Part shown: positions 1-62,644 of the stretch, piece after piece | Layout of the letters: every line of letters starts with the position of its first letter | Numbering within the stretch: position 1 is the first letter of the stretch | NCBI GenBank assembly: GCA_036785375.1 | Contig: JAWMAR010000070.1 | Span: 7,192,001 to 7,256,000, forward strand | DNA length: 64,000 nucleotides | Direction of reading: 5' to 3' | Origin: Leucoraja ocellata | Lineage: Eukaryota | The notes under the pieces: model-generated | Database searches by the model: none | What the model was told of the DNA's origin: nothing | What the model saw: only the letters and a program-made list of their open reading frames with translations | Program-made: the position numbers and the translations under genes

Positions 1-3
1 TCT

Positions 4-548: not shown

Positions 549-552
549 GAAC

Positions 553-1092
553 ATGGGACTGCAGAGATGGATAGGATTCATGGTCCTTGTGGAGATGGTG
601 TGGCAAGTCTCCGCAACTGGAACAGGTCCGATCTCCAGAGAATGGGGAGAGGAAGCAAACTTGGCCGGGCGGAACACACGGGCGTATTTCAAAGTCACCA
701 ATGAACCGCTTCCAAGATGCACGAACGAGTCAGATTCTGATGCCATCAGTCATCACCCATCACCGATTAACAAGAAGGTGCTCGTTGCATCTCTGGGTGG
801 TTCTGTTACGTTGCCATGTAATATATCCATCCTTAAAAATCATTACAGGGTTGTTCAATGGAAAAAAGATGGTGTTCAAATTGCCAGTTTCCATGAGAGA
901 GCGTATGCGCGTTATACGGGGTCTGATGTTCACTGGAAGTTCGTTGATCACGACGTCTATATGGCTCAGGACGCCACGTTGCTCCTGACAGGTGTAAAAG
1001 AGGAAGATACAGGGACGTATTCCTGTGTTTGGTTCCATTATAGAGATAGACCGTTTTGTGAATTATTGATGCAGCTGATGATCTCTCACTGA
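553..1092 (+). CDS. Secreted single V-set Ig-domain protein, subfamily A copy 1 (A1), 179 aa
   Basis: ATG 553 in strong Kozak context (GGAACATGG) just after a splice acceptor (TTGTTTCACCCACAG, AG at 547-548); the ORF-track GTG start at 526 lies in the intron. Hydrophobic leader MGLQRWIGFMVLVEMVWQVSA. V-set hallmarks: GGSVTLPC, VQW, DATLLL, EDTGTYSC, about 68 aa between the canonical Cys. Stop right after the G strand, no TM segment. Confidence 0.88.
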   Translation: MGLQRWIGFMVLVEMVWQVSATGTGPISREWGEEANLAGRNTRAYFKVTNEPLPRCTNESDSDAISHHPSPINKKVLVASLGGSVTLPCNISILKNHYRVVQWKKDGVQIASFHERAYARYTGSDVHWKFVDHDVYMAQDATLLLTGVKEEDTGTYSCVWFHYRDRPFCELLMQLMISH

Positions 1093-1964
1093 TTCAGCAG
1101 GGCCAGTCCCAGGGTCAGTAACAAAGTCTAGTCTAGTTTAGTTTCGTTCAGAGGTACAACAGGGAAACAAGCCCTTCGGCCACAGAGTCAATGGGGACCA
1201 GTGATCACCCCATATACTAGTTCTATCCCACACACTAGATACAATTTACACTGACCAATTAACCTACAAACCTGCACGTCTCTGGGGTGTGGGACGAAAC
1301 CGGAGCTCCCGGATTCCAAAGAGGAAGGAAGATTCCAAGGGGAGTTAGGGGCGACCGTGGCTGACAAGGGAAGTCAGGGACACTATCACAAATGCATTTC
1401 GTTGTCTCTGTTCTGTACACTGACAATGACAATTAAATTGAATCTGAATCTGATAAAAGTGAACAGGTATAACGTTGCAAAGATGAGCGGAAAGCCAGGG
1501 GATTAGGTAACTCTTTTAAAGAGCAACAGAAGATAACTAAAAAAGCAATACGGGGAGAAAAGATGAGGTATGAAGGTAAGATAGCCAAGAATAGAAAGGA
1601 GGATCGTAAAAGCTTCTTTAGATATGTGAAAAAAATTAGTTCAGACTAAAATTGGTCCTTTATAGACTAAAAACTTTGGATCCGTCTTCACTAAGGAGAA
1701 CACAAACAATCTCCCTGATGTACTAGTGGCCAGAGGATCTGGGGACAACGGAGAGCCAGTGGATGTAGTGTACCTGGACTTGCAGGAAGTATTTGATAAG
1801 GTCCCACATAGGAGATTAGTGGGCAAAATTAGAGCACATGGTATTGGGGGAAGGGCCTGTTTCCATATTGTTTGACTCTGACACTAAGTAGGGAATAGTA
1901 AAGGTATAAAGATGAGCAGCGTGGAAGGTGTGAGCGTGGATCGCCTGCAGTGAGGAGAACTGAC

Positions 1965-7137: not shown

Positions 7138-7674
7138 ATGGGACTGCAGAGATGGATAGGATTCATGGTCCTTGTGGAGATGGTGTGGCAAGTCTCCGCA
7201 ACTGGAACAGGTCCGATCTCCAGAGAATGGGGAGAGGAAGCAAACTTGGCCGGGCGGAACGCACGGGCTCCTCGACAAGTCACCAATGAAACGCTTCCAA
7301 GATGCACGAACGAGTCAGATTCTGATGCCATCAGTCATCACCTATCAACGATTAACAAGAAGGTGCTCGTTGCATCTCTGGGTGGTTCTGTTACTTTGCC
7401 ATGTAATGTATCCAACGTTGACAATAGTCCCGAGGTTACATGGAATAAAGATGGTGTTGAAATTGCCTATTTCCATAGTAGAGTGCATGAGCGTTATACA
7501 GGATCTGATGTTCACTGGAAGTTCGTGCAACGAAACGTCCTTTGGGAACAGGACGCCACGTTGCTCCTGACAGGTGTAAAAGAGGAAGATAAAGGGACGT
7601 ATTCCTGTGTTTGGATCAAGTATCGTCAGAAACCGGTTTGTGAATTATTGATGCAGCTGATGATCTCTCACTGA
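7138..7674 (+). CDS. Secreted single V-set Ig-domain protein A2, 178 aa
   Basis: Same leader and acceptor as A1; GGSVTLPC...VTW...DATLLL...EDKGTYSC; intact ORF. Confidence 0.88.
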   Translation: MGLQRWIGFMVLVEMVWQVSATGTGPISREWGEEANLAGRNARAPRQVTNETLPRCTNESDSDAISHHLSTINKKVLVASLGGSVTLPCNVSNVDNSPEVTWNKDGVEIAYFHSRVHERYTGSDVHWKFVQRNVLWEQDATLLLTGVKEEDKGTYSCVWIKYRQKPVCELLMQLMISH

Positions 7675-14223: not shown

Positions 14224-14555
14224 AGAACGAGACGTGGTGGAGACACAAGCAGGATGTGTGGGGCGCCTGGTTGGCCGCTGGCAGCTGGGATGACGTTGTT
14301 CTTGTTAAACGTTAACGGCTGATGCAACGACACGTTTGGCAGAGGGTGGAGAGGTCGCGGCTGACTCCGGCCAATGCTCCGTGGGAGGCAGTGATTGGTT
14401 GAATGTACGTGAGGGCAGACAATGAGGGGCAGGAGAAGCCGGGAGTCGGTATAAAAGGAGCGAGCGATGGCAGGAGATGAGAACAAGACCGACCCCGTCA
14501 CCCTGTGTGGAGACTCCGGAGCTGGTAACCAACCCTGTGGATCCTTCAAGTGTCT
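14224..14555 (+). promoter_or_regulatory. A3 promoter and non-coding exon 1
   Basis: TATA 14450-14457, ERSE 14380-14398, donor GTGAGT at 14556; essentially identical to the A2 promoter. Confidence 0.72.
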
Positions 14556-15102
14556 GTGAGTGATGGGGGTGGGATTGTCTCTGTTCACTGTTCCCCCAGT
14601 TCAGAAGCCTGATAGCAGAGGGGAAGAAGCTGTTCCTGAGTCTGGTGGTGCGCGCTTTCAAGCTTCTGTACCGTCTGCTAGACAGGACCAGGGAGAAGAA
14701 GGAATGACTGGGGTGGGACAAGTGATGGAGTCATAGAGTCACAGCGAGACCTTCGGCCCAAGTTGCCCGCGCCCACCAATGTGTCCCCATCAATACTAGA
14801 CCCACCTGCCTGCGTTTGGCCCTTACCCCTCTAATCCTGTCCTATCAATGTACCTGTCTAACTGTTTCTTAATCATTGTGATAGTACCTGCCTCAACTAC
14901 CTCTTCCGGCAGCTCGTTCCAAACACCCTCCACCCTTTATGTAAAAAAGTCACCCCTCAGTTTCCCATTAAATCTTTCCCCCCCTCGCCTTAAACCGATG
15001 TCCTCTGGTTCTCGATTCCCCAACTCTGGGCGGGTTCAGGAAATGTCATCATGAATCCTACTGAGTTGCAATAAGGTGACCCATTGTTTCACCCACAGGA
15101 AC

Positions 15103-15652
15103 ATGGGACTGCAGAGATGGATAGGATTCATGGTCCTTGTGGAGATGGTGTGGCAAGTCTCCGCAACTGGAACAGGTCCGATCTCCAGAGAATGGGGAGA
15201 GGAACCAAACTTGGCCGGGCGGAACGCACGGGCCCCTCAGCAAGTCAACAATGAACCGCTTCCAAGATGCACGAATGACTTAGATTCTGACAGTGATCAC
15301 GGTGCATCGAATAGCGATATTAGGCTCATTGCATCTCCGGGTGATTCTTTGACGCTGCCCTGTAAAATATCCAAAGATTACAAACAACTCTGGTTAGTTC
15401 AGTGGAGACAAAACGATGTTGAAATTAACAATTATAATGAGAAAACGTTTGATGAATATACGGGATCTGATGTCCGCTGGATATTTGTGGATCTAGAAGT
15501 CCTTTGGGACTGGGACGGCTCGTTGCTCCTGAGGCATAAAAGAGAAAGATGAAGGGATATATTCCTGTGTTTCGTTCATTGATACTCATGTGTTATGTGA
15601 AGAATTGGCCCAGCTGACAATCCTCCCAGTGATTCAGCAGTGCCCGACCTAG
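15103..15652 (+). pseudogene. Frameshifted A-type Ig V-domain gene (A3)
   Basis: Same leader; PGDSLTLPC...VQW...DGSLLL, then a 2-nt deletion after 15532 (CTG A-- GGC versus CTG ACA GGT in A1). The shifted frame continues GIKEKDEGIYSCVSFIDTHVLCEELAQLTI. An extra base near 15622 also moves the paralogous TGA (15630-15632) out of frame. Confidence 0.75.
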
Positions 15653-16759
15653 GGTCAGTAGCAAAGTCTAGCTTAGTTTAGTTTTGTTTAGTTCTGGGAA
15701 ACAGGCCCTTCGGCCCACAGTCAACGGGGACCAGTGATCACCCAATATACACTAGTTCTATCCCACACACTGGATACAATTTACACCGACCAATTAACCT
15801 ACAAACACGCACGTCTCTGGGATGTGGGAGGAAACCGGAGAGCCCGTCGGAAACCCACACGGTCACAGTGAGAACGTGCAAACTCCGTACAGACAACACC
15901 CGGGGAATAGAGAGAGTGAATGCACAGAGTCTTTTACCCAGAGTGCGGGAATCAAGAACCAGGGGGCACAGGTTTAACGTGAGAGGGGCAAATTTTGAAA
16001 GGAATCTGAGGGGCAACTTTTTCACTCAGGTGGGGGGGGGGGGAGGGGGGGAGGTGTGTATGGAACGAGCTGCCAGAGTAGGTAGTTGAGGCAGGTTCTA
16101 CAACAACATTTAATGGGCACTTGGATAGGTCCATGGATAGGAATGGTTTTATGGGGATATGGGCCAAATGTGATGAAATAGAACTAGCTTAGTGGGTCTG
16201 CATGGGCGAGGCTATTAGTAGGTCAAATGGCTATTTCCTACTAGCCAATTATTGTGCTTGTTAGTAGTGACTAGATAGATAGATAGAATCTTTATTTGCC
16301 ACACGACCAGGGTTGGTGGTATGTGGGTTCGGTACATGATGCTACACTGCTTTAGTCACATTAACACTAATAACAACACAGATCACAGTAATAAAGTGCA
16401 TCCATACCACATCACAAATCACAAATCTCACCAACAATACATAGTGCAAAAGAACAGACAAAGACCATAGACAAGACACTGTATACATCAAAAGTCTTAG
16501 TATTGTCTGATTATTGGAGGGAATTGAGTGTTCTTATTGCTGAGGGGAAGAAACTGTTTTTAAAGCGGGTGGATTTTGTAGCAAGTGACCTGAGGCGCCT
16601 TCCTGAAGGGAGAGACTGAAATAGGTGGTTTGCTGGAGGGGAGGGGTCCGAGATGATCTTTATTGCCCGTTTTGAGGTACGTTGGAGATAAATGGAATGG
16701 ATTGAGGGCAGGGGGGAGTTGATGATCCTGAGGCCTTAGAGACAATGCGCTGTAATCTG

Positions 16760-19700: not shown

Positions 19701-20325
19701 GCATAAACCCCAGAGACCTTAACTGCCATCAAACGGCCACACTACCCAATGCGATTATTAGAGGAAGTTGCTGCTCAGGTAGGCAACACTTCAGTATTCT
19801 CCATTCTGGATGCCAAGAGCTCATTTTGGAAGATTCCACTGGACCCAGACACGTCAAATCTCATTTCATTCGGCACCCCCTTTGGCCGATACAAATTTCT
19901 GAGAATGCCCTTTGGCATCAACTCTGCCAGCGACGTTTTCCAGCGCACGATGGAACAATTGTTTGTTGAGTACCCATGTGCCATCATTGTTGATGACATT
20001 CTCGTCTACAGACGTGATTGGACTGAACATGACGCCAATCTGAAGAAAGAACTATACAATGCCAAAGACATTCAGCTCAAACTCAATCCCTTGAAGGGCA
20101 AGTTTCGAGTTCCAGAAGATACTGACGTTGGACATGTCTTCACAAGTGATGGTCTCAGACCAGACCCATCAAAAACTGCACCTATCAACAAAATGCCGGT
20201 TCCTTGGAATGGTCAACTACCAGGGGAAATTTATTCCCAACCTCAGCGACATATCTGCCCCCTGTGGGAACTGACACACAAGGACGCTGCATGGTCATGG
20301 TATCCGCAGCACCAAAGAGTTTTCC
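16760..20325 (+). mobile_element. Decayed Ty3/Gypsy LTR retrotransposon (Mag-like), 3'-truncated
   Basis: Short 5' LTR about 16760-16927 ending CTCATTACA; gag with Zn knuckle CNFCKKLNHFSRCC; protease KVDTGTKCNVIS; RT FSILDAKSSFW, RMPFGI, IIVDDILVY; multiple stops and frameshifts. Confidence 0.88.
17306..18485. mobile_element. Composite insertion with palindromic Penelope-like ends and 15-bp TSD (duplicate 47119-48889)
   Basis: ATATTATTGAACGGA at 17291-17305 and 18486-18500 flanks the insert, which interrupts the Gypsy gag. Confidence 0.65.
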
Positions 20326-20572
20326 ATCAACCGTTCCTCAGCCCACCTGGCCATTATTTCAGGATGCTGCTGCAATTTATCACAACCATCTCCACTATCT
20401 GCAAAACCGCCTACTTTTGTGTCATCTCCCTTTACTTCTGTCCCTGTTTTGTTCCTGACAACATTCCCTTTTACTTTTGTTCCTGTTCTCAACACCTGCG
20501 GACTCCATGATTTTCCACATGTTGTTCCGGCCCCGTGTGGTCATGGACAATGTTGGACACAGCTCATAGAAG

Positions 20573-20710
20573 CCGGCGATGTTGCCCGTAGTGAGCAAGA
20601 GTTGCACAAAGTTCACACCCAACTCAATGCCGGCGTACAAAGAATCACTCACACCGGCTGTCTTCAAGAGAGTTTATTTCCATTAATGATACATTTACCG
20701 ATGCAAGCAC
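20573..20710 (-). terminator. Conserved polyadenylation module of B1 (B2 37486-37491; B3 51107-51112; B4 55646-55651)
   Basis: TTTATT on + strand at 20673-20678 inside the reverse complement of the A-gene module. Confidence 0.6.
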
Positions 20711-21112
20711 GATCTGTCCCATTGCACTACATTTGCCCCATATCCCCCTAAACCTTTCCCTGTCCCAAGTGTGTATTAAATATTGTTACAATTCCCACCC
20801 CACCAGACAGTTCTATAAACCCACCGCCCCCTGAGTGAAAATGTTGCCCTTCAGGTTCCTATTAAATCTTGCCCCTCTAACCTTAAACTTATGTCCCCCT
20901 GGTTCTTGATTCCCGTACCCCAGGTAAAATATGTTTTGTGTTCACCCCTCTATTCCCCACATGATGAATTAAGTGACTACAATATAGAATGCTGTTGTTG
21001 GCCTAAGTATGTGGAGTTTATAATGATGGATGTTATTGTGTGTTTGTGCTGTCCTGCCACTGCCTGTTGCTTCTGTCACATGGGGGGGCCTGTGCTGGGT
21101 CAGTGTGAGGTT

Positions 21113-21628
21113 TCACTTCACTGTCAGCTTGATATTTAGTCTACATTCCTTTTGGCCAGTGAACCAAGAGCAGGAATATATCCCAATATCAGTCTTGAGT
21201 AAACCTATGATGACCAACGAGGCATCCCGTGTCCCATCCACGTTTGTATTCATGAACCTCCAGCGGCCGACCCCCCCTGGATAAGTCGCTCCTTTCCCTT
21301 TAGTAAACACGCCCAGTATCCCGCTCCCTTTACTCCAGGTGATCATAAAATCCGCGGGTCCAGTCTTCCCTGTGGGTACTTTACAGGGCAGCGTAGCAGA
21401 ACCACCCTTGCGTGCCGTCACATCCGTGAATTTCATCTTGGTCGCAGCTGGCTTAGCACCGCATTCTGGAGAACTTTGTTTTTTGACTTGTCGAGGCTCC
21501 CGTGCGTTCCACCCGGGCAAGTTTGCTTCCTCTCCCCATTCTCTGGAGATCGGACCTGTTCCAGTTGCGGAGACTTGCCACACCATCTCCACAAGGACCA
21601 TGAATCCTATCCATCTCTGCAGTCCCAT
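21113..21628 (-). CDS. Secreted single V-set Ig-domain protein, subfamily B copy 1 (B1), 171 aa
   Basis: Same leader as the A genes; GGSATLPC, ITW, GRWRF, RDASLVI, DIGIYSC, ends KLTVK-stop; no TM segment. Confidence 0.88.
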   Translation of the reverse strand: MGLQRWIGFMVLVEMVWQVSATGTGPISREWGEEANLPGWNAREPRQVKKQSSPECGAKPAATKMKFTDVTARKGGSATLPCKVPTGKTGPADFMITWSKGSGILGVFTKGKGATYPGGVGRWRFMNTNVDGTRDASLVIIGLLKTDIGIYSCSWFTGQKECRLNIKLTVK

Positions 21629-21632
21629 GTTC

Positions 21633-22218
21633 CTGTGGGTGAAACAATGGGTCACCTTATTGCAACTCAGTAGGATTCATGATGACATTCCCTGAAGCTG
21701 CTGCCACCACACTGGGCAATATCGCTGTGCAGCTTCTACAGCTCCCGCCTGGTTTAGTTTAAGTTGCTTTGACCTGTCGTGGACCAACAACATTGAAGTG
21801 GCAGCCAAGGAGGCACACCAATGCATCGACTTCCTCAGAGACAGAGGAAATACGACAAGTCTCCAATGTCTCTTAGAAACTTCTACAGATGCACCACAGA
21901 GAGCAGACTGTGGGGTTGCATCACAGCTTGGTTTGGGAACAGCTCTGAGCCCAAGACCACAAGATATTGCAGAGTTGTGGATGGAGCCCAGTCCATCACA
22001 CAGACCACACTCCCCACCAGTGACTCCATCTACAACCAAAAAAATCAAAGTCTTGTCCCACCCCGGGCATTCCTCCTTCTCCCTGGTCCTGTCTAGCAGA
22101 CGGTACAGAAGCTTGAAAGCGCGCACCACCAGACTCAGGAACAGCTTCTTCCCCTCTGCTATCAGGCTTCTGAACTGGGGGAACAGTGAACAGAGACAAT
22201 CCCACCCCCATCACTCAC
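21633..22218 (-). other. Predicted 5'UTR intron of B1, alternative type (also B3, 52036-52621)
   Basis: Same donor and acceptor ends as the other copies, but the middle (about 21696-22050) is a longer Rex1-like remnant instead of the CR1-type fragment. Confidence 0.65.
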
Positions 22219-22593
22219 AGACACTTGAAGGATCCACAGGGTTGGTTACCAGCTCCGGAGTCTCCACACAGGGTGACGGGGTCGGTCTTGTTCTCATCTC
22301 CTGCCATCGCTCGCTCCTTTTATACCGACTCCCGGCTTCTCCTGCCCCTCATTGTCTGCCCTCACGTACATTCAACCAATCACTGCCTCCCACGGAGCAT
22401 TGGCCGGAGTCAGCCGCGACCTCTCCACTCTCTGCCAAACGTGTCGTTGCATCAGCCGTTAACGTTTAACAAGAACAACGTCATCCCAGCTGCCAGCGGC
22501 CAACCAGGCGCCCCACACATCCTGCTTGTGTCTCCACCACGTCTCGCTTTGGCCACCCATCGGACCAGATGTCCCAGCCACGCCACGTCACCA
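22219..22593 (-). promoter_or_regulatory. B1 promoter and non-coding exon 1
   Basis: TATA 22317-22324; ERSE CCAAT-N9-CCACG 22376-22394; UPRE-type TGACGTGG (CCACGTCA on + strand) 22583-22590. Confidence 0.75.
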
Positions 22594-22599
22594 CCACAG

Positions 22600-29070: not shown

Positions 29071-31597
29071 GGACCACAATATGGTCGAATTCCATATTCA
29101 AATAGAAGGGGAGCAGGTTGAAACTCAGGCTAGGGTGCTTAGTCTAAATAAGGGGGATTATGAAGGTATGAGGACTTAGCTGATCAAAGTTGACTGGGAT
29201 AGCAGACTCAAGAATAAGACGGTACATGAGCAGTGGTGTACGTTTAAGGGTATACTGTATAATCTTCAAGAAAAATTTATTCCTATGAAGAAAAAAAGGG
29301 GTAAGGGTAAGAACAGTCAGCCATGGCTCAGTAAAACTATAAAGGATAGTATTCGGCTGAAAGCAAGGGCATATAAGGTAGCCAGAGATAGTGGGAGGGT
29401 AGAGGATTGGGAAGCATTTAAAGGTCAGCAAAAAATAACTAAGAGATTAATTAAGACGGGGAAAATAGATTATGAAAGGAATTTAGCGAACAACATAAAA
29501 ACTAATAGTAAGAGTTTTTATAGCTATATAAAAAGAAAAAGGGTGGCTAAGGTGAACGTTGGTCCATTGGAGGGTGAGACTGGAGAGTTGTTGGTGGGGA
29601 ACATGGAAATGGCAAAGGCATTAAACGAGTATTTTGTATCAGTCTTCACCATAGAAGACACAAAAAATATTCCAACGCTGGATAAACAGGGGGCGGTAGG
29701 AATGGAGGAGCTAAATACTATTAAGATCACCAAGGAGGTGGTATTAGGGAAATTAATGAGACTGAAGGAGGATAAATCCCCTGGGCCTGATGGATTACAT
29801 CCAAGGGTCTTGAGGGAGATAGCGGTGGGGATTGTGGATGCATTGGTGATAATTTTCCAAAACTCCCTGGAGGCAGGAACGGTCCCAGTGGATTGGAAAA
29901 TGGCCAATGTAACACCTATATTTAAAAAAGGAAGTAAACAGAAGGCGGGTAACTATAGACCGGTTAGTCTAACATCGGTGGTGGGTAAAATGTTAGAGAC
30001 AATTATTAAAGAAACACTAACGGGGCACTTGGATAAACATGACTTCATCGGACAGAACCAGCATGGTTTTGTGAAGGGGAAGTCCTGTTTAACGAATCTG
30101 CTCGAATTCTTTGAGGAAGTAACAACCCGGGTGGATAAAGGGGAACCGGTGGATGTGGTATACTTGGACTTCCAAAAGGCTTTTGACAAGGTGCCACATA
30201 AGAGACTATTGCTAAAAATAAAAAATTATGGGATTGGGGGTAATATATTAGCATGGGTAGAGGATTGGCTAACAAATAGGAAGCAGAGAGTGGGGATAAA
30301 TGGTTCATACTCGGGATGGCAACCGGTAACTAGCGGGGTTCCGCAGGGGTCGGTGCTGGGACCCCAGTTGTTCACAATTTATATAAATGATTTGGAGGAG
30401 GGAACCAAGTGTAATATATCAAAATTTGCGGACGATACAAAAATGGGAGGAAAAGTAGGGGATGAGGAGGATAGGAAGAGTCTGCAAAAGGATATAGATA
30501 AGCTAGGTGAGTGGGCAACAACTTGGCAGATGAAATTTAATACTAATAAATGTGAAGTCATTCACTTTGGGAAAAAAAATGATAGGGCAAGTTATTTTCT
30601 AAATGAGGAGGAGCTGCGTTGTAATGCAACGCAAAGGGATCTAGGGGTATTAGTACATGAATCACTGAAAGTTAGTATGCAGGTGCAGCAAGCAATCAGG
30701 AAGGCCAATGGAGTTTTGGCCTTTATTGCTAGGGGGATTGAGTATAAAAACACGGAGGTCTTGCTGCAGCTGTACACAGTATTAGTGAGACCACATTTGG
30801 AATACTGTGTACAGTTCTGGGGTCCATACTTAAGAAAGGATGTACTAGCCCTGGAGGCAGTGCAGCGAAGGTTTACAAGATTAATTCCTGCAATGAGGGG
30901 ATTGACATATGAGGAAAGGTTAAGTAGGCTGGAACTCTACTCTTTGGAGTTTAGAAGAATGAGAGGCGATCTCATTGAAACATATAAGATCGTGAGGGGC
31001 CTTGATCGGGTGGATGCACCGAGGATGTTCCCAATGATCGGGGAAACTAGAACTAGGGGACATAGTTGCAGAATAAGAGGGGGCTCTTTTAAAACTGAGA
31101 TGAGGAAGAACTTCTTCACCCAGAGGGTGGTTAATTTATGGAATTCACTGCCCCAGGGAGCAGTGGAAGCAGAAACTTTAAATATATTTAAGACAAAAAT
31201 AGATGTTTTTTTAGCTGCCAAGGGGATAAGGGGCTACGGGGAGAGGGCAGGGATATGGACCTAGGTATGGTTAGTATAGTAAGACCTGAGTGATCTCCTG
31301 GACAAGTGTCGATCGCCTGGATTGGGGTCAGAGAGGAATTTCCCGGATTTTTTTCCCGAATTGGACCTGGGTTTTTATCCGTTTTTTTGCCTCCCCCAGG
31401 AGATCACGAGGTTCTTGGGGTGGAGAGGGGTGATAGCGGTATAAGGGGGAGGGTAGTGTCTTGTGTTCTGTGTCTTGTGTCTACTGTTTGTGGGTAAGTG
31501 TGTCTGTTTAGTGTTCAGCCATGAGCGAATGGCGGTGCGGGCTCGACGGACCTGGTGGTCTACTCTCGCACCTACTTTCTATGTTTCTATGTTTCTA
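29071..31597 (+). mobile_element. Young 5'-truncated CR1 LINE nested in the ERV
   Basis: ORF2 homology begins at DHNMVEFHI; ends in (TTTCTATG)n. Confidence 0.92.
29285..31264 (+). CDS. CR1 ORF2 remnant, reverse transcriptase domain, 659 aa open frame, endonuclease missing
   Basis: [43 protein letters not shown]; in-frame stop upstream at 29177-29179. Confidence 0.8.
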   Translation: MKKKRGKGKNSQPWLSKTIKDSIRLKARAYKVARDSGRVEDWEAFKGQQKITKRLIKTGKIDYERNLANNIKTNSKSFYSYIKRKRVAKVNVGPLEGETGELLVGNMEMAKALNEYFVSVFTIEDTKNIPTLDKQGAVGMEELNTIKITKEVVLGKLMRLKEDKSPGPDGLHPRVLREIAVGIVDALVIIFQNSLEAGTVPVDWKMANVTPIFKKGSKQKAGNYRPVSLTSVVGKMLETIIKETLTGHLDKHDFIGQNQHGFVKGKSCLTNLLEFFEEVTTRVDKGEPVDVVYLDFQKAFDKVPHKRLLLKIKNYGIGGNILAWVEDWLTNRKQRVGINGSYSGWQPVTSGVPQGSVLGPQLFTIYINDLEEGTKCNISKFADDTKMGGKVGDEEDRKSLQKDIDKLGEWATTWQMKFNTNKCEVIHFGKKNDRASYFLNEEELRCNATQRDLGVLVHESLKVSMQVQQAIRKANGVLAFIARGIEYKNTEVLLQLYTVLVRPHLEYCVQFWGPYLRKDVLALEAVQRRFTRLIPAMRGLTYEERLSRLELYSLEFRRMRGDLIETYKIVRGLDRVDAPRMFPMIGETRTRGHSCRIRGGSFKTEMRKNFFTQRVVNLWNSLPQGAVEAETLNIFKTKIDVFLAAKGIRGYGERAGIWT

Positions 31598-37925: not shown

Positions 37926-38438
37926 TCACATCACTGTCAGCTTGGTATTTAGTCTACATTCCTCTTTGCCAGTGAACCAAGCGCAGGAATACATCCCAAC
38001 ATCACTCTTCTGTAAACCCGTGATGACCAACGAGGCATCCCGTGTCCCATCCACGTTTGTTTCCTTGAACGACCAGCGGCCGGCCCCCCCTGGATAGGTC
38101 GCACCTTTCCCTTTAGTAAACACGGCCAATGTCCCCTTCCCTTTACTCCAGGTGACAGCAAAGTTGCTGGGTCCATCCTTCCCTGTGGGTACTATACAGG
38201 GTAGCGTAGCAGAACCACCCTTTGCCGTCACATCCGTGAATTTCATCTTGTTCGCAGCTGGCCTAGCACCGCATTCTGGAGTATCTTGTTTGTTGACTTG
38301 TCGAGGCTCCCGTGCGTTCCACCCGGGCAAGTTTGCTTCCTCTCCCCATTCTCTGGAGATCGGATCTGTTCCAGTTGCGGAGACTTGCCACACCATCTCC
38401 ACAAGGACCATGAATCCTATCCATCTCTGCAGTCCCAT
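37926..38438 (-). CDS. Secreted single V-set Ig-domain protein B2, 170 aa
   Basis: Intact paralog of B1 (GGSATLPC...VTW...DASLVI...DVGMYSC...KLTVM). Confidence 0.88.
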   Translation of the reverse strand: MGLQRWIGFMVLVEMVWQVSATGTDPISREWGEEANLPGWNAREPRQVNKQDTPECGARPAANKMKFTDVTAKGGSATLPCIVPTGKDGPSNFAVTWSKGKGTLAVFTKGKGATYPGGAGRWSFKETNVDGTRDASLVITGLQKSDVGMYSCAWFTGKEECRLNTKLTVM

Positions 38439-39365: not shown

Positions 39366-41170
39366 ACAGCCCTTGGCACCTGCGCTGGTTCCACAGTTTA
39401 TACTCAATCTGAGCCGGCAGCTGGGATGGCGTTGGATCAATTCTTCCTTCCCAACAACCATCAGGCTGTTGAACACGACACGACACTGAGGTCAACGATG
39501 AACGTCTATGGAATGTCCAAGGTTGCACTAATGCCCCTGTCCCACTTAGGAAACCTGAACGGAAACCTCTGGAGACTTAGCGCCCCACCCAAGGTTTCCG
39601 TGCGGTTCACGGAGGTTTTTGTCTGTCTCCCTACCTGCTTCCACTACCTGCAACCTCCGGCAACCACCTGCAACCTCCGGCAACCACCTGCAACCTCCGG
39701 GAACCTTCGGGACGAAACGTTGCCTATTTCCTTCACTCCATAGATGCTGCTGCACCCGCTGAGTTTCTCCAGCATTTTTGTGTACCTTCGATTTTCCAGT
39801 ATCTGCAGTTTCTTCTTCAACATCAAATAGAACAAGTTGTCCTACAACTTTAGGCTGTGCACGCCACACGAAAGAAGAAGTTGACATGTCTGTCCCGCCA
39901 TCCCGGGTATTAACCTGGTGAACCTACGTTGCACTCCCTCAATAGCAAGAATGCCCTTCCTCAAAATGACAGTGAAGTGCTGCCTCTACAGAGACACCCA
40001 ATAGACCTGATAGAATGGTATAAAATGATGAGAGGCGTAGATAGCTGAGATAACCTGAAGCAATTTCCCGAAGGCTTTGGAGACGGTGCAGAAGCAGTTC
40101 CCCAGAATGATGTCGGGATCGGAGGTTGTTAGTTATATGGACAGGTTGGATAATCTTGGATTAGTTTCTCTAGAACTTCAGATGTTGAGCGGAGACCTGA
40201 CAGAAGGTAATAAAATTCTTAAGGGGTTGGACAGGCTAGATGCAGGAACGTTGTTCCCGATGTTGGGGAAGTCCAGAACTAGGGGTCACAGTTTAAGGAT
40301 AAGGGGGAAATCTTTTAGGACCGAGATGAGAAAAACATTTTTCACACAGAGAGTGGTGAATGTGGAATTCTCTGCCACAGAAGGTATTTGAGGCCAGTTC
40401 ATTGGCTATATTTAAGAGGGAGTTAGATGTGGCCCTTGTGGCTAAAGGGATCAGGGGGTATGGAGAGAAGGCAGGTACTGGATACTGAGTTTGATGATCA
40501 GCCATGATCATATTGAATGGCGGTGCAGGCTCGAAGGGCCGAATGGCCTACTCCTGCACCTATTGTCTATTGTCTACTGTCTATTGTCTATTGAGATAGG
40601 AAACATTTAAAGATACAAGTGGAGGTAGTTACAATAGTTCAGAGACTTTATCTAAAAAATCTCATGGACATGCAGGGAATTGAGATTATGGATCAGGTGC
40701 AGGCAGAGGAGATTAGCTGAACTTGGCATCATGTTCAGCACGGACCTTGTGGGCCGAAGGGCCTGTTCCTGTGCTGTTCCATGTTCTATGTTACATCATC
40801 TTCTCAATCACATCTTGAGAAGAACATTTTCCAGAGGTGCCCAGGTACCACCAGTGTGACATTCATTGTATCTGCTGCAGTCAATGAGTGTGTTGTGTAG
40901 ACAGCCAGAGGAGAAGATGGGATTTATGTGGAGTTTCATTTTGTAATCATTATTTATTTAATATCATAGTGTAATAGAGTCATAGAGTGATACAGCGTGG
41001 AAACAGGCCCTTCGGCCCAACTTGCCCACACTGGCCAACATGTCCCAGCTACACTAGTCCCACCTATCCACGTTTGGTCCATATCCTTCTAAATCTGACC
41101 TATACCTGTTCCTGTTTAACTGTTTCTTAAACGTCGGGATAGTTTCTGCCTCAACTGCGATGAGTTGACC

Positions 41171-41502
41171 AGAACGAGACGTGGTGGAGACACAAGCAGG
41201 ATGTGTGGGGCGCCTGGTTGGCCGCTGGCAGCTGGGATGACGTTGTTCTTGTTAAACGTTAACGGCTGATGCAACGACACGTTTGGCAGAGGGTGGAGAG
41301 GTCGCGGCTGACTCCGGCCAATGCTCCGTGGGAGGCAGTGATTGGTTGAATGTACGTGAGGGCAGACAATGAGGGGCAGGAGAAGCCGGGAGTCGGTATA
41401 AAAGGAGCGAGCGATGGCAGGAGATGAGAACAAGACCGACCCCGTCACCCTGTGTGGAGACTCCGGAGCTGGTAACCAACCCTGTGGATCCTTCAAGTGT
41501 CT
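41171..41502 (+). promoter_or_regulatory. A4 promoter and non-coding exon 1
   Basis: TATA 41397-41404, ERSE 41327-41345, donor at 41503; divergent from the B2 promoter. Confidence 0.75.
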
Positions 41503-42051
41503 GTGAGTGATGGGGGTGGGATTGTCTCTGTTCACTGTTCCCCCAGTTCAGAAGCCTGATAGCAGAGGGGAAGAAGCTGTTCCTGAGTCTGGTGGTGCGC
41601 GCTTTCAAGCTTCTGTACCTTCTGCTAGACAGGACCAGGGAGAAGGAGGAATGACCGGGGTGGGACAAGTGATGGAGTCATAGAGTCACAGCGAGACCTT
41701 CGGCCCAACTTGCCCGCGCCCACCAATGTGTCCCCATCAATACTAGACCCACCTGCCTGCGTTTGGCCCTTACCCCTCTAATCCTGTCCTATCAATGTAC
41801 CTGTCTAACTGTTTCTTAATCATTGTGATAGTACCTGCCCCAACTACCTCTTCCGGCAGCTCGTTCCAAACACCCTCCACCCTTTGTGTAAAAAAGTCAC
41901 CCCTCAGTTTCCCATGAAATCTTTCCCCCCCCCTCGCCTTAAACCGATGTCCTCTGGTTCTCGATTCCCCAACTCTGGGCGGGTTCAGGGAATGTCATCA
42001 TGAATCCTACTGAGTTGCAATAAGGTGACCCATTGTTTCACCCACAGGAAC

Positions 42052-42591
42052 ATGGGACTGCAGAGATGGATAGGATTCATGGTCCTTGTGGAGATGGTGT
42101 GGCAAGTCTCCGCAACTGGAACAGGTCCGATCTCCAGAGAATGGGGAGAGGAAGCAAACTTGGCCGGGCGGAACACACGGGCGTATTTCAAAGTCACCAA
42201 TGAACCGCTTCCAAGATGCACGAACGAGTCAGATTCTGATGCCATCAGTCATCACCCATCACCGATTAACAAGAAGGTGCTCGTTGCATCTCTGGGTGGT
42301 TCTGTTACGTTGCCATGTAATATATCCATCCTTAAAAATCATTACAGGGTTGTTCAATGGAAAAAAGATGGTGTTCAAATTGCCAGTTTCCATGAGAGAG
42401 CGTATGCGCGTTATACGGGGTCTGATGTTCACTGGAAGTTCGTTGATCACGACGTCTATATGGCTCAGGACGCCACGTTGCTCCTGACAGGTGTAAAAGA
42501 GGAAGATACAGGGACGTATTCCTGTGTTTGGTCCGTGTATAGAGATAGACCGTTTTGTGAATTATTGATGCAGCTGGTGATCTCTCACTGA
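42052..42591 (+). CDS. Secreted single V-set Ig-domain protein A4, 179 aa
   Basis: Near-identical to A1; differs at FH>SV in the FG region and M>V near the C-terminus. Confidence 0.88.
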   Translation: MGLQRWIGFMVLVEMVWQVSATGTGPISREWGEEANLAGRNTRAYFKVTNEPLPRCTNESDSDAISHHPSPINKKVLVASLGGSVTLPCNISILKNHYRVVQWKKDGVQIASFHERAYARYTGSDVHWKFVDHDVYMAQDATLLLTGVKEEDTGTYSCVWSVYRDRPFCELLMQLVISH

Positions 42592-44689
42592 TTCAGCAGG
42601 GCCAGTCCCAGGGTCAGTAGCAAAGTCTAGTTTAGTTTAGTTCCGTTCAGAGGTACAACAGGGAAACAAGCCCTTCGGCCCACAGAGTCAATGGGGACCA
42701 GTGATCACCCCATATACTAGTTCTATCCCACACACTAGATACAATTTACACTGACCAATTAACCTACAAACCTGCACGTCTCTGGGGTGTGGGACGAAAC
42801 CGGAGCACCCGGATTCCAAAGAGGAAGGAAGATTCCAAGGGGAGTTAGGGGCGACCGTGGCTGACAAGGGAAGTCAGGGACACTATCACAATAAAAGAGA
42901 ACAAGTATAACGTTGCAAAGATGAGCGGAAAGCCAGGGGATTGGGTAACTCTTTTAAAGAGCAACAGAAGATAACCAAAAAAGCAATACGGGGAGAAAAG
43001 ATGAGGTATGAAGGTAAGATAGCCAAGAATAGAAAGGAGGATCGTAAAAGCTTCTTTAGATATGTGAAAAAAATTAGTTCAGACTAAAATTGGTCCTTTA
43101 TAGTCTAAAAATTTTGGATCCGTCTTCACTAAGGAGAACACAAACAATCTCCCTGATGTATTAGTGGTCAGAGGATCTGGGGACAATGGAGAGCCAGTGG
43201 ATGTAGTGTACCTGGACTTGCAGGAAGTATTTGATAAGGTCCCACATAGGAGATTAGTGGGCAAAATTAGAGCACATGGTATTGGGGGAAGGGCCTGTTT
43301 CCATATTGTTTGACTCTGACACTAAGTAGGGAATAGTAAAGGTATAAAGATGAGCAGCGTGGAAGGTGTGAGCGTGGATCGCATGCAGTGAGGAGAACTG
43401 ACCTTGCTTGCACCGGTAAATGTACGTTTAATTTAAATAAACTCTCTTCTGCCTGCCCTGAAGACAGCCGGTGTGAGTGATTCTTTGTACGCCAGCATTG
43501 AGTTGGGTGTGAACTTTGTGCAACTTTTGCTCACTACGGGCAACATCGCCGGATTAAAGGGCCTGTCCCACGAGCATGCGACTCCATGCGGCAAGCGCGA
43601 CCTAACGTGGTCACTTGAGCCGTACGGCCTCGCGGGGCCGGTCCCACTTTGATCGCCGGAGCCGTATGGAGTTGTGTGGAGCTGGTCCCGACATCGCGCG
43701 GGGCTCTGAAAAACTGAACATGTTAGGATATGGAAACAGGTTCTTCGGCCCACCGAGTCTAACCCAACCAGTGATCACCCCTACACTAGTTCTAACCTAC
43801 ACACTAGGGACAATTTACTGAAGCCAATTAACCTACAAATCTACACGTCTTTGCAATCTGAAAGGAAACCAGAGCACCCGGAGGAAACCCACATGGTCAC
43901 AGGGACAATGTACATACACTGTACAGACAGTGCCCGTAGTTACCATCGAAGGCGGGTCTCTAGCGCTGTAAGGCAGCAACTCTACCGCTGCGCCACTGTA
44001 CCGCCCCTGCATTGCCCTCGTGCATTGTAGGGCTGCTGATTAGAGTCCAGTTTTGACCCTCGTTGGGTGTCAATTGTGGTTGTCAAGGAGCTTTCTTACC
44101 TCCGTATGGAGCCTGGTCTTCCAGTTATAGACCCACACCACCCTGGCCACAAACAGTAGGATAACTGCCTGGCACATTATATACAATATTTACAATGCTG
44201 TTGCAGTAATCTAATCAGCCATGCATTTACACTTCATTGGAGGTCATCTCCTTGCACGGAAATCGGCATCAAAACATGGGGGGGCACAATTCCATGGCGG
44301 CACACATGCACACGCGAGGATTCGGCCGTGGGCACTGTGGACGGTAACATCGGGAGCTGACTTGGTTGGTGACCGACTCCGAACTCCAGCAACAGCAGCT
44401 TCGTCCGCCCCGAACCGTGGGGCTTGAATCGGCCCGTTCGCGGGGCCTTTCATCGCCCGGCAGGGGTTTCAACATTGGTATTGATGTGGATAGAGAACTG
44501 GCTGGCAGACAGAAAGCAAAGAGTAGGAGTAAACGGGTCCTTTTCAGAATGGCAGGCAGTGACTAGTGGGGTACTGCAAGACTCAGTGCTGGGACCCCAG
44601 CCATTTACAATATATATGTTTTGTTTAGTTCTGGGAAACAGGCCCTTCGGCCCACAGTCAACGGGGACCAGTGATCACCCAATATACAC

Positions 44690-45587
44690 GTGTGGGGCCG
44701 GTGGGGGCGCTGCACTGGCAGCAGCCCTGTCAGCAGCGTGTTAGTCTTTTCAACTTTTTTTATTTTTTTAGTATGTCTTAAAGTCTGTTTTTAGTGTTTC
44801 TTAGTGTGTTTTGTGTGGGGGGGTGAGGGGGAAACCGTTTTGGCCGCCTCCTCCATGGAGAGGCGACTTTTTCCAGGTCGCCTCCCCCGTGGCCTAACAG
44901 CGAGGATCGGCGCGGCCTTACCCGGAGACGCGCCCGGGGCTCGGGTCTCCGGCGGCGGGTGCAGCGTGGACTGGGGCTCGCTGGAGGGGAGCGCTCCGTT
45001 CCGTTGGCCCGCAGCAGACGGCAGCCTGAAGTCGCGGTCTGCACAGCTCCAGCTGGCGCGGCGTCTACAGCCCGGGATCCCTCGTGGGGGACCCGGGGGG
45101 AAGAAGAAGCTTCCACCGCCGGCCCGCGGCCAACTTCTACCGCGGGTCCGGTATGGACTTACATCACCCCTGGAGGGGAGCTTCGACCGCCGGCCCTGCA
45201 GACTGCGGTGCTTACGGCTGCGACATGGAGGGAACTTTAAATCTTCGGCCGCCGGCCTGCGGCCTACACCAACTAAAAGCCGCGGTCTCCGGTGGGGAGG
45301 AGCCGACTCTGGACTTACCTGGACTTGTACCTTGTCCTTTTACCATCTGGACGCCCGCAGCAACGGCTGCGGAGGGTTGAGGTCCCGACCACGGGGGGAA
45401 ATGGAGGAGGACTGGCCAAATTGTGTGCCTTCCACCACAGTGATGAATGCTGTGGTGGATGTTTATGTTAAAAATTTATTGTGTTTTTGTGTGTGCCCTT
45501 TATCATTGTATCGCTGCTGACATATCATTTCACTTGCACTTTTTGTGCAATGTGACAAATAAACCGTTGTATTGTATTGTATTGTAT
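44690..45587 (+). mobile_element. GC-rich non-autonomous retroelement inserted into a SINE
   Basis: Absent from the paralogous site near 15750 (CAATATACACTAGTTC); ends AATAAA...(TGTAT)n; CpG-rich body without a credible ORF. Confidence 0.55.
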
Positions 45588-46579
45588 ACTAGTTCTATCC
45601 CACACACTGGATACAATTTACACCGACCAATTAACCTTCAAACACGCACGTCTCTGGGATGTGGGAGGAAACCGGAGCGCCCGTCGGAAACTCACATGGT
45701 CACAGTGAGAACGTGCAAACTCCGTACAGACAACACCCGGGGAATAGAGAGGGTGAATGCACAGTCTTTTATCCAGAGTGCGGGAATCAAGAACCAGGGG
45801 ACACAGGTTTAACGTGAGAGGGGCGAATTTTGAAAGGAATCTGAGGGGCAACTTTTTCACTCAGGTGGGGGGGGGGGGGGGAGGTGTGTATGGAACGAGC
45901 TGCCAGAGTAGGTAGTTGAGGCAGGTACTACAACAACATTTAATGGGCACTTGGATAGGTCCATGGATAGGAATGGTTTTATGGGGATATGGGCCAAATG
46001 TAATGAAATAGGACTAGCTTAGTGGGTCTGCATGGGCGAGGTCAAATGGCTATTTCCTACTAGCCAATTATTGTGCTTGTTAGTAGTGACTAGATAGATA
46101 GATAGAATCTTTATTTGCCACACGACCAGGGTTGGTGGTATGTGGGTTCGGTACATGATGCTACACTGCTTTAGTCACATTAACACTAATAACAACACAG
46201 ATCACAGTAATAAAGTGCATCCATACCACATCACAAATCACAAATCTCACCAACAATACATAGTGCAAAAGAACAAACAAAGACCATAGACAAGACACTG
46301 TATACATCAAAAGTCTTAGTATTGTCTGATTATTGGAGGGAATTAAGTGTTCTTATTGCTGAGGGGAAGAAACTGTTTTTAAAGCAGGTGGATTTTGTAG
46401 CAAGTGACCTGAGGCGCCTCCCTGAATGGAGAGACTGAAAAAGGTGGTTTGCTGGAGGGGAGGGGTCCGAGATGATCTTTATTGCCCGTTTTGAGGTACG
46501 TTGGAGATAAATGGAATGGATTGAGGGCAGGGGGGAGTTGATGGTCCTGGAGGCCTTAGAGACAATGCACTGTAATCTG

Positions 46580-49500
46580 TGTAGTGAGTAGACTACACCT
46601 ATTATGCGCGTTATATTATCAAGAGCTTGCCTCCGCTAGTTTGTACTAGGAAATGTAATGTCCTGCAGATCTATGCTGTAAGTAGATTTAATAAACATGT
46701 GTTGTATCTTGATATGTGTCTGACTCAGCTCATTACATGATGTCCACCATGTCATGTTTTTTTAATTAGGTTATGTGTCTACTATATCCATCATGACACA
46801 TTTTTGTCGCCTTCCTAGTCCTGTGATCTTTGACTCTGACACTGCTGAACTCTGACGTCTTTTCGAGCATGACTACACTCATTATGCTGGCATTGTTCAT
46901 CTCAACGACCCCCCCCCCCAATGTGCGTGCTTTTGTGTTGCTCAACTTAGCGGGACCTGAAGCTATGAATCGCGCTGGCAATTTCACATTTGAGCCTGCT
47001 GTTCTGGATGCTAATGGTCAGGTCCTGGCGCCTGCTGAGACGAATGACGACCCTGCTGTCTTTCTTGCAAAGTTCAGATGGTTGTGTGACCTGCACTCAA
47101 ACTATATTATTGAACGGAGGTACACAAAAATGCTGGAGAAACTCAGCGGGTGCAGCAGCATCTATGGAGCGAAGGAAATAGAAACATAGAAACATAGAAA
47201 CATAGAAACATAGAAATTAGGTGCAGGAGTAGAGGCCATTCGGCCCTTCGAGCCTGCACCGCCATTCAATATGATCATGGCTGATCATCCAACTCAGTAT
47301 CCCATACCTGCCTTCTCTCCATACCCCCTGATCCCCTTAGCCACAAGGGCCACATCTAACTCCCTCTTAAATATAGCCAATGAACTGGCCTCAACTACCC
47401 TCTGTGGCAGAGAGTTCCAGAGATTCACCACTCTCTGCGTGAAAAAAGTTCTTCTCATCTCGGTTTTAAAGGATTTCCCCTTTATCCTTAAGCTGTGACC
47501 CCTTGTCCTGGACTTCCCTAACATCGGGAACAATCTTCCTGCATCTAGCCTGTCCAACCCCTTAAGAATTTTGTAAGTTTCTATAAGATCCCCTCTCAAT
47601 CTTCTAAATTCTAGAGAGTATAAACCAAGTCTATCCAGTCTTTCTTCATAAGACAGTCCTGACATCCCAGGAATCAGTCTGGTGAACCGTCTCTGCACTC
47701 CCTCTATGGCAATAATGTCCTTCCAGGCCAAAACCCTTCTTCAGACAGGTTTCGGCCAGAAACGTTGCCTATTTCTAGAAAGGTTTCGTTCCGAAACATT
47801 GCCTATTTCCTTCGCTACATAGATGCTGCTGCACCCGCTGAGTTTCTCCAGCATTTTTGTCTACCTTTGTTCCATTTGATCTTCCGTTTGTGCACGTCGA
47901 ATTGATTGCATTAGTCGAAACAGGGCGGACCTCGTGAAGGTTGCAATCTTCCACCCCTGACATATGACGAAGGAATGGATCGAATGTGCTTGTATTCACT
48001 GGAATTTAGGATGAGACTGGAACTTATAAAAACATATAAAATTCTTAAGGGATCGGACAGACTAGATAGATGCAGGAAAAATGTTCCCGATGTTGGGGGA
48101 GTCCAGAACCAGTGGTCACACAGTTTAAGAATAAGGTGTCGGCCATTTAGGACTGAGATGAAAAAAACCTTTTCACCCAGAGAGTTGTGAATCTGTGGAA
48201 TTCTCTGCCACAGAAGGCAGTGGAGGCCAATTCACTGGATGTTCTCAAGAGAGAGTTAGATTAAGCTCTTAGTGCTAACGGAATCAAGGGATATGGGGAG
48301 AAAGCAGGAACGGGGTAATGATTTAGGATGTTCAGCCATGATCATATTGAATGGCGGTGCTGGATCGAGGGGCCGAATGGCCTCCTCCTGCACCAATTTT
48401 CTATGTTTGTGCACAATCCCAACAAGGGTCAAAACTGGACTCTAATCAGCTGTTGCAACTGTGCAAGAGGCCAATGTAAGGGAGGCTCAGTGATACAGCA
48501 GTAGACTTGCTGCCGTACAGCGCTAGTGACCCGGGTTCAATGCTGACTGTAGGTACTGTCTGTACGGTGGTTGTACTTTTTCCCTATGACCGTGACGGTT
48601 TCGCCCAGGTGCTACAGTTTCCTCACAGATGTCAAAGACGTGCAGGTTTGTAGGTTAATTGGCTTCAGTAAATTGTCCCTTGTGTGTAGGTTAGAACTAG
48701 TGTACGGGCGATCACTCAAGTTCAAGATTCAAGAGAGTTTATTGGCATGTGTCCCTGATAGGACAATGAAATTCTTGCTTTGCTTCAGCACAACAGAATA
48801 TAGTAGGCATTTACTACAGAACAGATCAGAGTTTCTCCAGCATTTTTGTGTTCCTTTGATCTTCCAGCATCTGCAGTTCCTTCTTGAGCATATTATTGAA
48901 CGGACCAAGTTTTATGCTCGTATGCAACAGGTTGGTGAACCAAAGGTTTTATCAGTGACTTAAAACAAATGGCTGCACGCTGCTAATTTCGAGATCTGTG
49001 CGATGAACTCATCCATGACAAAGTTGTCGGAGGAATGCTTGATAGCAAGTTACGGGGTGAACTTCTTTGTAATACTGACCTAACCCTTAATCAAGCAGAG
49101 CATGCCTGTTGGATGCTGAGATAACATCTTCCCACACTGAGTCTGTGTCCTCTGGTCACTGTTCGCAGCATAGTGTTAATCTTGCAGACTACTCCTCTTG
49201 TAACACCCACACAAGGTCTGTTCGATGTCAAAATTGCAACTATTTTCTTGCTAGGTGTCAGCAGTTCTGCATTGCTTATGGTAAAGCCTGTAATTTCTGC
49301 AAGAAGTTAAACCACTTTTCTCGATGCTGCCGTTCCCGTGTGACTCAAGCAGCGTCAAGGATGAGCCTGCACCTGCTGCAACATGAGCTTGTTGATAATG
49401 ACTTCCAAGACCTTGATTTGCCATCCCCCGCTCCACTCTCAGAAAGTACAGATACCAGTTCTGCAATCCATTCTCCCCTCCCTTCGTCTAACAAGCAACT

Positions 49501-61720: not shown

Positions 61721-62644
61721 ATGTCGGCGTCCCTGCGAGTCTCTACCAAGAAACAGTACTTGACCTACATCAGGAAATGGGAGCAGTACTGCTTGGATGC
61801 AGGGACATCATACAAGACAGCCTCGATCACGGACGTACTGGAATTCCTGGCCCACTTGCACCATGACCAAAAGATGAGCTACAGTGCCATCAATGCAGCA
61901 CGGAGCGCCCTGTCCGCTTACCTTATGCCTACAGGACATCACAGCATTGGATCCCACCCTCTGGTTATAAAACTCCTCAAAGGGATTTATAATACTAAAC
62001 CCCCTACACCCAGATACACCCATGTATGGGATGTAAGTGTAGTTTTGTCACACCTTAGAGGTTGGCCTCCGGTGGGATCCTTGAGTCTGGAGCAGTCCAC
62101 TCTCAAGACCCTCATGCTCATGGCGCTCGTCTCTGCACAAAGGGTTCAGTCGCTGCATCAACTAAGACTGGACAACATGGTAACCACCCCAGATTCCATT
62201 ACATCTACCATGCCGGGGTTGGTAAAACAAAGCAGGCCAGGTATGCCCAACTCTCCGTTAATCTTCCGGGCCTATCCTCCAGAACCTAGGCTGTGTGTAG
62301 TGACCCATCTATACAACTACGTAGACACAACCCAAACGCTTAGAGGGAGTGAAAAAGCCTTATGGGTCAGCCACAAAAAGCCTTTTGGACGGGTTACCAG
62401 CCAGACAATATCTAGGTGGTTGAAACAGGTCTTAAAAGCCGCGGGGATTAACACGGATGTTTTAAAATCCCATTCTACCAGGGCAGCGTCCACGTCAGCG
62501 GCGGAACGGATGCAGGTTCCCATAGACCACATCCTTAGTACAGCGGGATGGTCAAGGGAATCAACGTTCCGGAAATTCTACCACAAACCGCTGATGGAGA
62601 AGGACTTGTTTGCGGACAAAATTTTAGAATCTGCAAACTTATAA
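61721..62644 (+). CDS. DIRS tyrosine recombinase
   Basis: Catalytic R (SAQR), HSTR, GW and Y (FRKFY); first ATG 61721 in CACCACCATG context. Confidence 0.88.
   Translation: MSASLRVSTKKQYLTYIRKWEQYCLDAGTSYKTASITDVLEFLAHLHHDQKMSYSAINAARSALSAYLMPTGHHSIGSHPLVIKLLKGIYNTKPPTPRYTHVWDVSVVLSHLRGWPPVGSLSLEQSTLKTLMLMALVSAQRVQSLHQLRLDNMVTTPDSITSTMPGLVKQSRPGMPNSPLIFRAYPPEPRLCVVTHLYNYVDTTQTLRGSEKALWVSHKKPFGRVTSQTISRWLKQVLKAAGINTDVLKSHSTRAASTSAAERMQVPIDHILSTAGWSRESTFRKFYHKPLMEKDLFADKILESANL

Follow-up and report, generated by a model that had tools for sequence, protein, structure and literature searches.

Protocadherin genes and RHCE/RHD are examples of duplicates in which a peak of divergence stands out under gene conversion. 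The red and green opsin duplicates are described in the same terms, at least in the passages of PMC3924837 that treat them: under conversion together with selection, their non-coding DNA is homogenised, divergence lies in the functional exon and paralogue identity is retained across species. These features are shared by a family of V-set genes found here in the skate Leucoraja ocellata, eight copies of which lie within a window of 64 kb (the whole stretch of DNA analysed), A1 to A4 on the plus strand and B1 to B4 on the minus strand. Unlike the opsin pair, the skate family numbers at least eight copies, distributed over the two strands; its peak spans the entire mature domain, and conversion tracts also shuffle parts of that domain.

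According to the relevant sections of PMC7286890, a nectin is a type I membrane protein carrying several Ig domains, and PVR is reported only in placental mammals. In the dimers of the PVR family, a passage of PMC10486284 identifies AX6G as the lock and T(Y/F)P as the key. The first domains of nectins and PVR (CD155, CD112, nectin-1 and nectin-3, with the receptors TIGIT, CD96 and CD226) are like the skate family in V-set sequence and fold, and the family member from the electric ray Narcine has both the AX6G lock and a T-Y-P key intact. However, the family differs from nectins in having one domain, no membrane anchor, a leader and domain encoded in one exon and a pro-piece. It differs also in an invariant cysteine pair (56 and 169), in a lock and a key that are split between the B-type and A-type copies, respectively, and in forming a positively selected tandem array.

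Skate MDIR is a receptor comparable to SITR and NITR, and CEACAM N domains lack the canonical B-F cysteines. Lineage-specific expansion of V domains, with some members secreted and under selection, is described for CEACAM/PSG in part of PMC3628338, and in such an expansion the skate family resembles both CEACAM/PSG and the secreted fish receptors (SITR and secreted NITR), as far as those accounts go. Unlike CEACAM, the family keeps its B-F cysteines, and CEACAM was absent from the PDB matches listed for the Narcine member or A4; NITR10 matched A4 only at E 0.06. Antigen-receptor V genes, including the germline-joined shark genes and UrIg (VJ plus three C1 domains in the relevant passage of PMC12227049), share the V-set fold and a variable patch where CDR3 would begin, but the skate family has no J motif, no split leader and no constant domain. 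None of the 14 aligned proteins contains the J motif (F/W-G-X-G), and leader and V domain lie in one ORF. PMC12227049 and PMC3628338 were also considered as descriptions of the skate family itself, which the passages concerned do not describe. A literature search using seven locus identifiers and descriptions, partial in coverage and with supplements outside its scope, returned no account of the family. This batoid gene family is apparently undescribed; the evolutionary mechanism itself is already well known.

The plus-strand copies are A1 (553..1092, 179 aa, with an intron at 4-548), A2 (7138..7674, 178 aa), A3 (15103..15632) and A4 (42052..42591, 179 aa in a single coding exon), and those on the minus strand are B1 (21113..21628, 171 aa), B2 (37926..38438, 170 aa), B3 (51516..52031, 171 aa) and B4 (56088..56603, 171 aa). 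A3 is a probable pseudogene, carrying a 2-nt deletion near 15533 that shifts the frame, with the ORF stopping at 15552, as well as an altered codon for the invariant Trp. The coding exon of each copy encodes, in order, a hydrophobic leader, a pro-piece, a V-set domain and a stop, and introns of approximately 545-585 nt end 4 nt before the start codon. In A4 the intron occupies 41503..42047 (+), upstream of the MGLQ start, with a GT donor and an AG acceptor 4 nt before the ATG. Its junction agrees with the L. erinacea proteins named in RefSeq, in which the N-terminal extension reads across this site. The A4 TATA box lies at 41397..41403 (+), and the same motif is found at -653 to -696 in all seven copies that have upstream DNA in the window. 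The L. erinacea gene models begin at an in-frame ATG 17 nt after the TATA box, which adds 31 residues (41414-41502, + strand). This ATG may lie upstream of the transcription start, in which case the MGLQ methionine would be the real start.

The DNA of the window is repeat-rich, with reverse-transcriptase and tyrosine-recombinase ORFs, and no host gene from outside the family was recognised within the 64 kb. Four long ORFs at 58511-62644 (+), including a reverse transcriptase and a tyrosine recombinase, resemble what we take to be a near-intact DIRS-type retrotransposon. A 659-aa reverse-transcriptase ORF at 29285-31264 (+) belongs by appearance to a CR1-like LINE, decayed copies of which are found elsewhere. 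Moreover, a 155-aa ORF is present twice (16984-17451 and 46869-47189, both +) upstream of a Gypsy-like reverse-transcriptase fragment, and it had no match in Pfam or in phage records. A tandem array with a 31-nt period lies downstream of A2 at 9468-9932. Finally, a segmental duplication relates 14009-22599 to 40956-53002. Within it A4 stands where the probable pseudogene A3 would correspond, yet despite this position the A4 gene and its near flank resemble A1 and A2.

Relatives were retrieved from two skates and an electric ray, namely six L. erinacea proteins encoded on one chromosome, one from Rhinoraja and a distant one from Narcine, which NCBI names 'nectin-1-like'. Among the relatives retrieved, the family would appear to be found only in batoids. 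In a profile search of 1.84 billion representatives, the full-length matches among the best 150 listed were P0001 and P0054 (the Narcine member) only. Domain rescoring gave 95.5 bits for P0054 and 43 for the next best, with 1833 weaker matches beyond the listed 150. All eight database relatives are 175-221 aa long, and the ORFs in the window stop right after strand G. No longer or membrane-bound member was seen among 8000 candidates scored, which is weak evidence; the search yielded 11 generic Ig proteins, none of them chondrichthyan.

The A4 protein consists of a signal peptide (about residues 1-21, by eye), a pro-piece and a V-set domain, with no transmembrane segment. A model of A1 places the V fold at residues 75-178 (mean pLDDT 67.5, low over 1-50), with strands at 154-162 and 165-178. 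The last of these forms the C-terminus, which is therefore not a membrane anchor. From the leader, judged by eye, we infer that the proteins are secreted. The canonical C89 and C158 (B-F) are invariant in the 14 aligned skate proteins. Two extra cysteines, C56 and C169 in A1 numbering, are likewise invariant in 14/14 and present in the Narcine member; a C56-C169 bond probably ties the N-terminal stalk to strand G. R-x-x-R is the minimal proprotein-convertase site. Such a motif at codons 43-46 (A1 679-690) closes the conserved pro-piece in A2, A3 and B1-B4, and sequence conservation ceases near this point. The motif is kept in 6/7 skate database relatives and lost in A1, A4 and LOC129708937.

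Within this family, A1 and A4 are set apart by their near-identity. Pairwise alignment of the two CDSs (553-1092 versus 42052-42591) was ungapped over 540 columns and confirmed the five differences given in a preliminary description, at CDS positions 482, 484, 485, 486 and 526 (42533, 42535-42537 and 42577 in A4). The residue changes from A1 to A4 are F161S, H162V and M176V. Four of the five differences fall in codons 161-162 (42533..42537, +), which encode Ser and Val in A4, and Phe and His in A1 (1033-1038). These codons lie at the end of strand F and directly precede the 'key' tyrosine, Tyr163 (42538..42540, +). The fifth, M176V, is at 42577..42577 (+), its A1 counterpart being position 1078. 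This clustering is not due to chance, since only 3 of 400,000 random placements brought four of the five differences within 5 nt of one another. The same description held that no codon differs synonymously, and the alignment indeed contains no purely silent codon; position 486, the third base of a codon changed at all three sites, contributes 0.5 of a synonymous difference when mutational pathways are averaged (Sd 0.5, Nd 4.5). However, a random point change in this CDS is non-synonymous in 73-77% of cases, and therefore zero silent changes would be expected by chance with P 0.39-0.46 (3/3 codons; 0.20-0.27 for 5/5 bases; Fisher p = 0.59). The absence of silent changes thus carries no signal, and the A1-A4 pair alone gives no signal of positive selection. 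The region had also been called CDR3-like, a term that is apt by position only, since the model has a two-residue hairpin turn there with neither J motif nor rearrangement.

A donor tract for the variants, for which the preliminary description proposed a search, was absent from the window, where the 9-mer context of each variant occurs once only. One extra 8-mer match to the A4 variant lies at 51826, in an unrelated part of B3, and five additional 8-mer matches to the A1 variant all fall outside CDSs. The A1 bases at 482 and 526 are common to all six other paralogues (A2, A3 and B1-B4), and at the latter site, that of M176V, the A4 residue is shared with L. erinacea LOC129708939. In all, other paralogues carry 4/5 of A1's variant bases, and another species has the three residues of A4; the variants are therefore unlikely to be read errors.

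A1 and A4 are identical over window positions 1-1033, agreeing at every variable column upstream of +482, whereas their 3′ flanks differ at 22/1436 positions (p = 8e-6). The intron alone has 0/552 differences (p = 0.001). In the bin +450..+600 they differ at 8/150, like other same-type pairs (5-13 of about 150), and three more differences are found within 55 nt past the stop. Between CDS +526 and +2142, A1 agrees with A2 at 19 events and with A4 at 11, whilst A2 and A4 agree at 7. Moreover, a 62-nt segment of the A1 3′ flank (1391..1452, +) is also present in A2 and absent from A4. From these comparisons we attribute the near-identity of A1 and A4 to recent gene conversion between old paralogues over at least 1033 nt, and not to a young duplication. 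The minimum conversion tract in A4 is 41500..42532 (+), identical to window 1-1033 and covering the intron, leader, pro-piece and V strands A-F; 1033 nt is a lower bound, as the true 5′ end of the tract for A1 lies outside the window. The S, V and V of A4 are present in L. erinacea, and these states therefore predate a species split. On the same comparisons, the five differences for the most part predate the conversion event, whichever its direction.

The direction was probably from A1 into A4. LOC129708939 equals A4 at all 19 residues from 161 to 179, including S, V and V, so that A4 and this protein differ at 19/119 residues in 42-160 and at 0/19 in 161-179. A1 differs from it evenly, at 19/119 and then 3/19. 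The B4/LOC129708941 pair differs at 4/130 mature residues. The step seen in A4, together with the low divergence of the B4 pair, suggests that the orthologue is A4 and that A1 sequence replaced it as far as codon 155-160. The direction test alone gives a Fisher p of 0.074 and assumes that LOC129708939 is the A4 orthologue, compared at the protein level; the protein cluster of LOC129708939 contains a second, unlisted member. The last difference between A4 and LOC129708939 is T155S, with none from residue 161 onward. If A4 was the recipient, the 3′ breakpoint would lie at 42517..42532 (+), after codon 155 and before 161, in YSCVW. In this scheme a recent tract of at least 1033 nt would have copied the intron, leader and V strands A-F of A1 over A4 and stopped in the conserved YSCVW, leaving the FG turn, the G strand and the 3′ flank of A4 as they were. 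The retained FG turn and G strand still match the L. erinacea orthologue, and the five differences would be the unconverted remnant. Taken as a whole, an origin as old paralogues, a tract from A1 to A4 and a role as secreted binders make the best explanation, and one that we hold with slightly better than even confidence.

The reverse event has perhaps one chance in four or so on our reading. In that case A1 would have arisen when an A2-type unit received an A4-type 5′ region and V domain, either by copying or through unequal crossing-over. M176 would then derive from the A2-type end, and F161-H162 would be a retained patch or a new multi-base change, possibly selected. Such an event fits the 3′ flank of A1, which is nearer to that of A2 (16/1495) than to that of A4 (22/1436) and is alignable with A2 further, as well as six sites in +490..+502 at which A1 equals A4 and A2 differs. 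A single protein tree, from which A3 was excluded, places the three changes on A1's branch and fits this direction equally. However, an intact A4 orthologue would have had to change at 19/119 residues but at 0 of the last 19, at a rate about five times that of the B4 pair (p = 0.0007). F161 is, moreover, the state in A3, B1 and B2, so that a new mutation there would be a reversion. An assembly artefact is improbable. Here the 5′ identity would stem from collapse or cross-polishing of genes truly about 10% diverged throughout, and the 1033 nt of perfect identity is indeed unique among 28 pairs, the next exact run through a start codon being 350 nt. Against this, homogenisation and mosaicism of the conversion type are seen in other pairs too, the variant bases and residues recur in paralogues and in another species as read errors would not, and polishing seldom rewrites a 10%-diverged exon.

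The preliminary description regarded the pair as the earliest step of diversification after duplication, in which three new amino-acid changes would have been favoured by positive selection after a very recent duplication. We consider this very improbable. In its favour are the five differences, none purely silent and four clustered, and the positive selection that does occur in the family. Yet the S, V and V of A4 already exist in L. erinacea LOC129708939, and other paralogues carry A1's bases. The 3′ flanks have diverged by 1.5%, with the 62-nt indel and three differences within 55 nt after the stop, and replacement changes are in no statistical excess. Tandem substitutions are known from shark immunoglobulin hypermutation, and a germline, AID-like targeted hypermutation of V exons could have produced the 4-base patch, although we give this the least credence of all. 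Mature-domain dS exceeds flank divergence, multi-base codon changes are numerous and cross-codon adjacent changes are above expectation in 7/7 pairs, but this tandem excess is significant in 0/7 (p = 0.07-0.59). At WRCY/RGYW hotspots the differences stay close to background in 5/7 pairs (e.g. 2/25 vs 14/185), with two pairs read from B2 giving 5 of 18-19 at hotspots vs 23/204. B4 is, furthermore, 98% identical to its Leucoraja orthologue.

Conversion from A1 into A4 would be one instance of a pattern found across the family. Leader dS is 0 in all 21 pairs, while dS in the mature region is 0.05-0.11 within types (A1-A4 excepted) and 0.59-0.94 between them. Same-type flanks have diverged by 0.9-3.5% (A3 and the A1-A4 5′ side set aside) and introns by 0.5-2.9%, even between A and B copies. 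B2 and B4 carry an A-type intron, which is further evidence of 5′ conversion across types; B1 (about 21700-22010) and B3 (about 52100-52410) share a different 300-nt middle. B4 is identical to L. erinacea LOC129708941 at 167/171 residues, compared with 82-85% identity among the B paralogues. The 5′ DNA and flanks are thus homogenised, the functional exon is diverged, and within the peak the orthologue is closer than the paralogues. For B1-B4, all three trees give an omega of 2.4-2.7 (p no higher than 0.003) and a class of sites near 8 (M2a vs M1a, p below 1e-6). Omega is 2.3 for A4-A2 (p = 0.03) and 2.1 for A1-A2 (p = 0.076). A3 was left out of the codon tests, as it was of the tree, because of its frameshift, and recombination can inflate omega values in such tests. 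In the B mature region, 12 informative sites are arranged in blocks backing all three incompatible splits (p = 0.004; 0.008 per codon). Judged from these sequence patterns, conversion keeps promoter, leader and pro-piece near-identical, selection both drives and preserves the divergence of the mature domain, and occasional tracts shuffle pieces of that domain.

With regard to what the domain resembles, 24/29 PDB sequence matches of the Narcine member, including the top 23, are PVR or nectins, with lock and key aligned. The best single-domain PDB match of A4 is PVR, in which S161-V162-Y163 is aligned with V-T-F. Residue 161 therefore stands opposite the position just before the T(F/Y)P key of PVR domain 1, residues 162 and 163 opposite its first two positions, and Tyr163, which is the same in A1, A2 and A4, opposite the key Phe of T-F-P. 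Foldseek with the A1 model gave PVR or nectin-1 D1 as the top four matches, PD-L1 being almost level; in the search with B4, PVR comes only after ROBO2, IL1RAPL1 and an antibody light chain. In the ESM Atlas the first match was a TIGIT-like cluster at 0.95 and the others were generic V-set proteins, which we treat as a lead only. The AX6G lock is exact in 6/15 proteins (B2, B3, B4, two from Leucoraja and that from Narcine) and takes the form GX6G in 2, and its glycine is lost in all seven A-type proteins, A1 and A4 included. The full T(F/Y)P key occurs in 1/15 (Narcine) and in 0/14 skate proteins; its aromatic residue is kept in 6/15, among them A1 and A4, and lost in all seven B-type proteins.

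The several Ig domains, transmembrane segment and cytoplasmic tail of nectins are lacking in the family, and we therefore regard these proteins, on their sequences, as nectin-D1-like rather than nectins; for the skate copies the nectin assignment is weak. As PVR is limited to placental mammals, the parent would be an older nectin-family gene, and no chondrichthyan nectin was retrieved among the candidates scored. The FG region had been proposed as a specificity determinant from the lack of silent changes, which lends it no support. The proposal itself survives as plausible by homology for residues 161-162, because 161-163 align with the key and the mature domain is positively selected. A prediction of an A4 and B4 complex, as a possible heterodimer of A key and B lock, scored 0.00 in a run without alignments, a value that speaks neither for nor against such a dimer.

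Most likely, the products would form a co-expressed, secreted mixture that binds through the GFCC′C′′ face, including the FG key at 162-163, and A4 would be a new combination of the A1 body with its own key region. The target would be a fast-changing partner, with the proteins most probably serving as decoys or soluble ligands for nectin-engaging pathogens or receptors. By homology and the arms-race signature, we give about an even chance to a part in host-pathogen or immune recognition, played as decoys or soluble ligands. Reproductive recognition is in our judgement clearly less likely, and some other role less likely again. A role in a reproductive gland was considered since the family is batoid-only, and the literature search listed nothing bearing on it. 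A more far-reaching reading, which we put forward as doubtful, is that of a germline library of secreted recognition proteins, derived from nectin domain 1 and serving either as decoys against pathogens that bind nectins or in the recognition of gametes or mates. A single promoter-leader cassette, which conversion keeps uniform, would drive a mixture of V domains under positive selection, and tracts that end in conserved framework (YSCVW, for instance) would recombine the parts of these domains. A4 would be a recently formed hybrid of the A1 body and its own FG key, with lock and key split between the B and A types.

Rather than recording first mutations, A1 and A4 thus mark a conversion breakpoint that is clean and can be dated, and the pair provides a natural experiment on three residues at a known binding motif. 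If these proteins are decoys or ligands, the family would show a new way in which cartilaginous fish diversify recognition, separate from the rearranging receptors.
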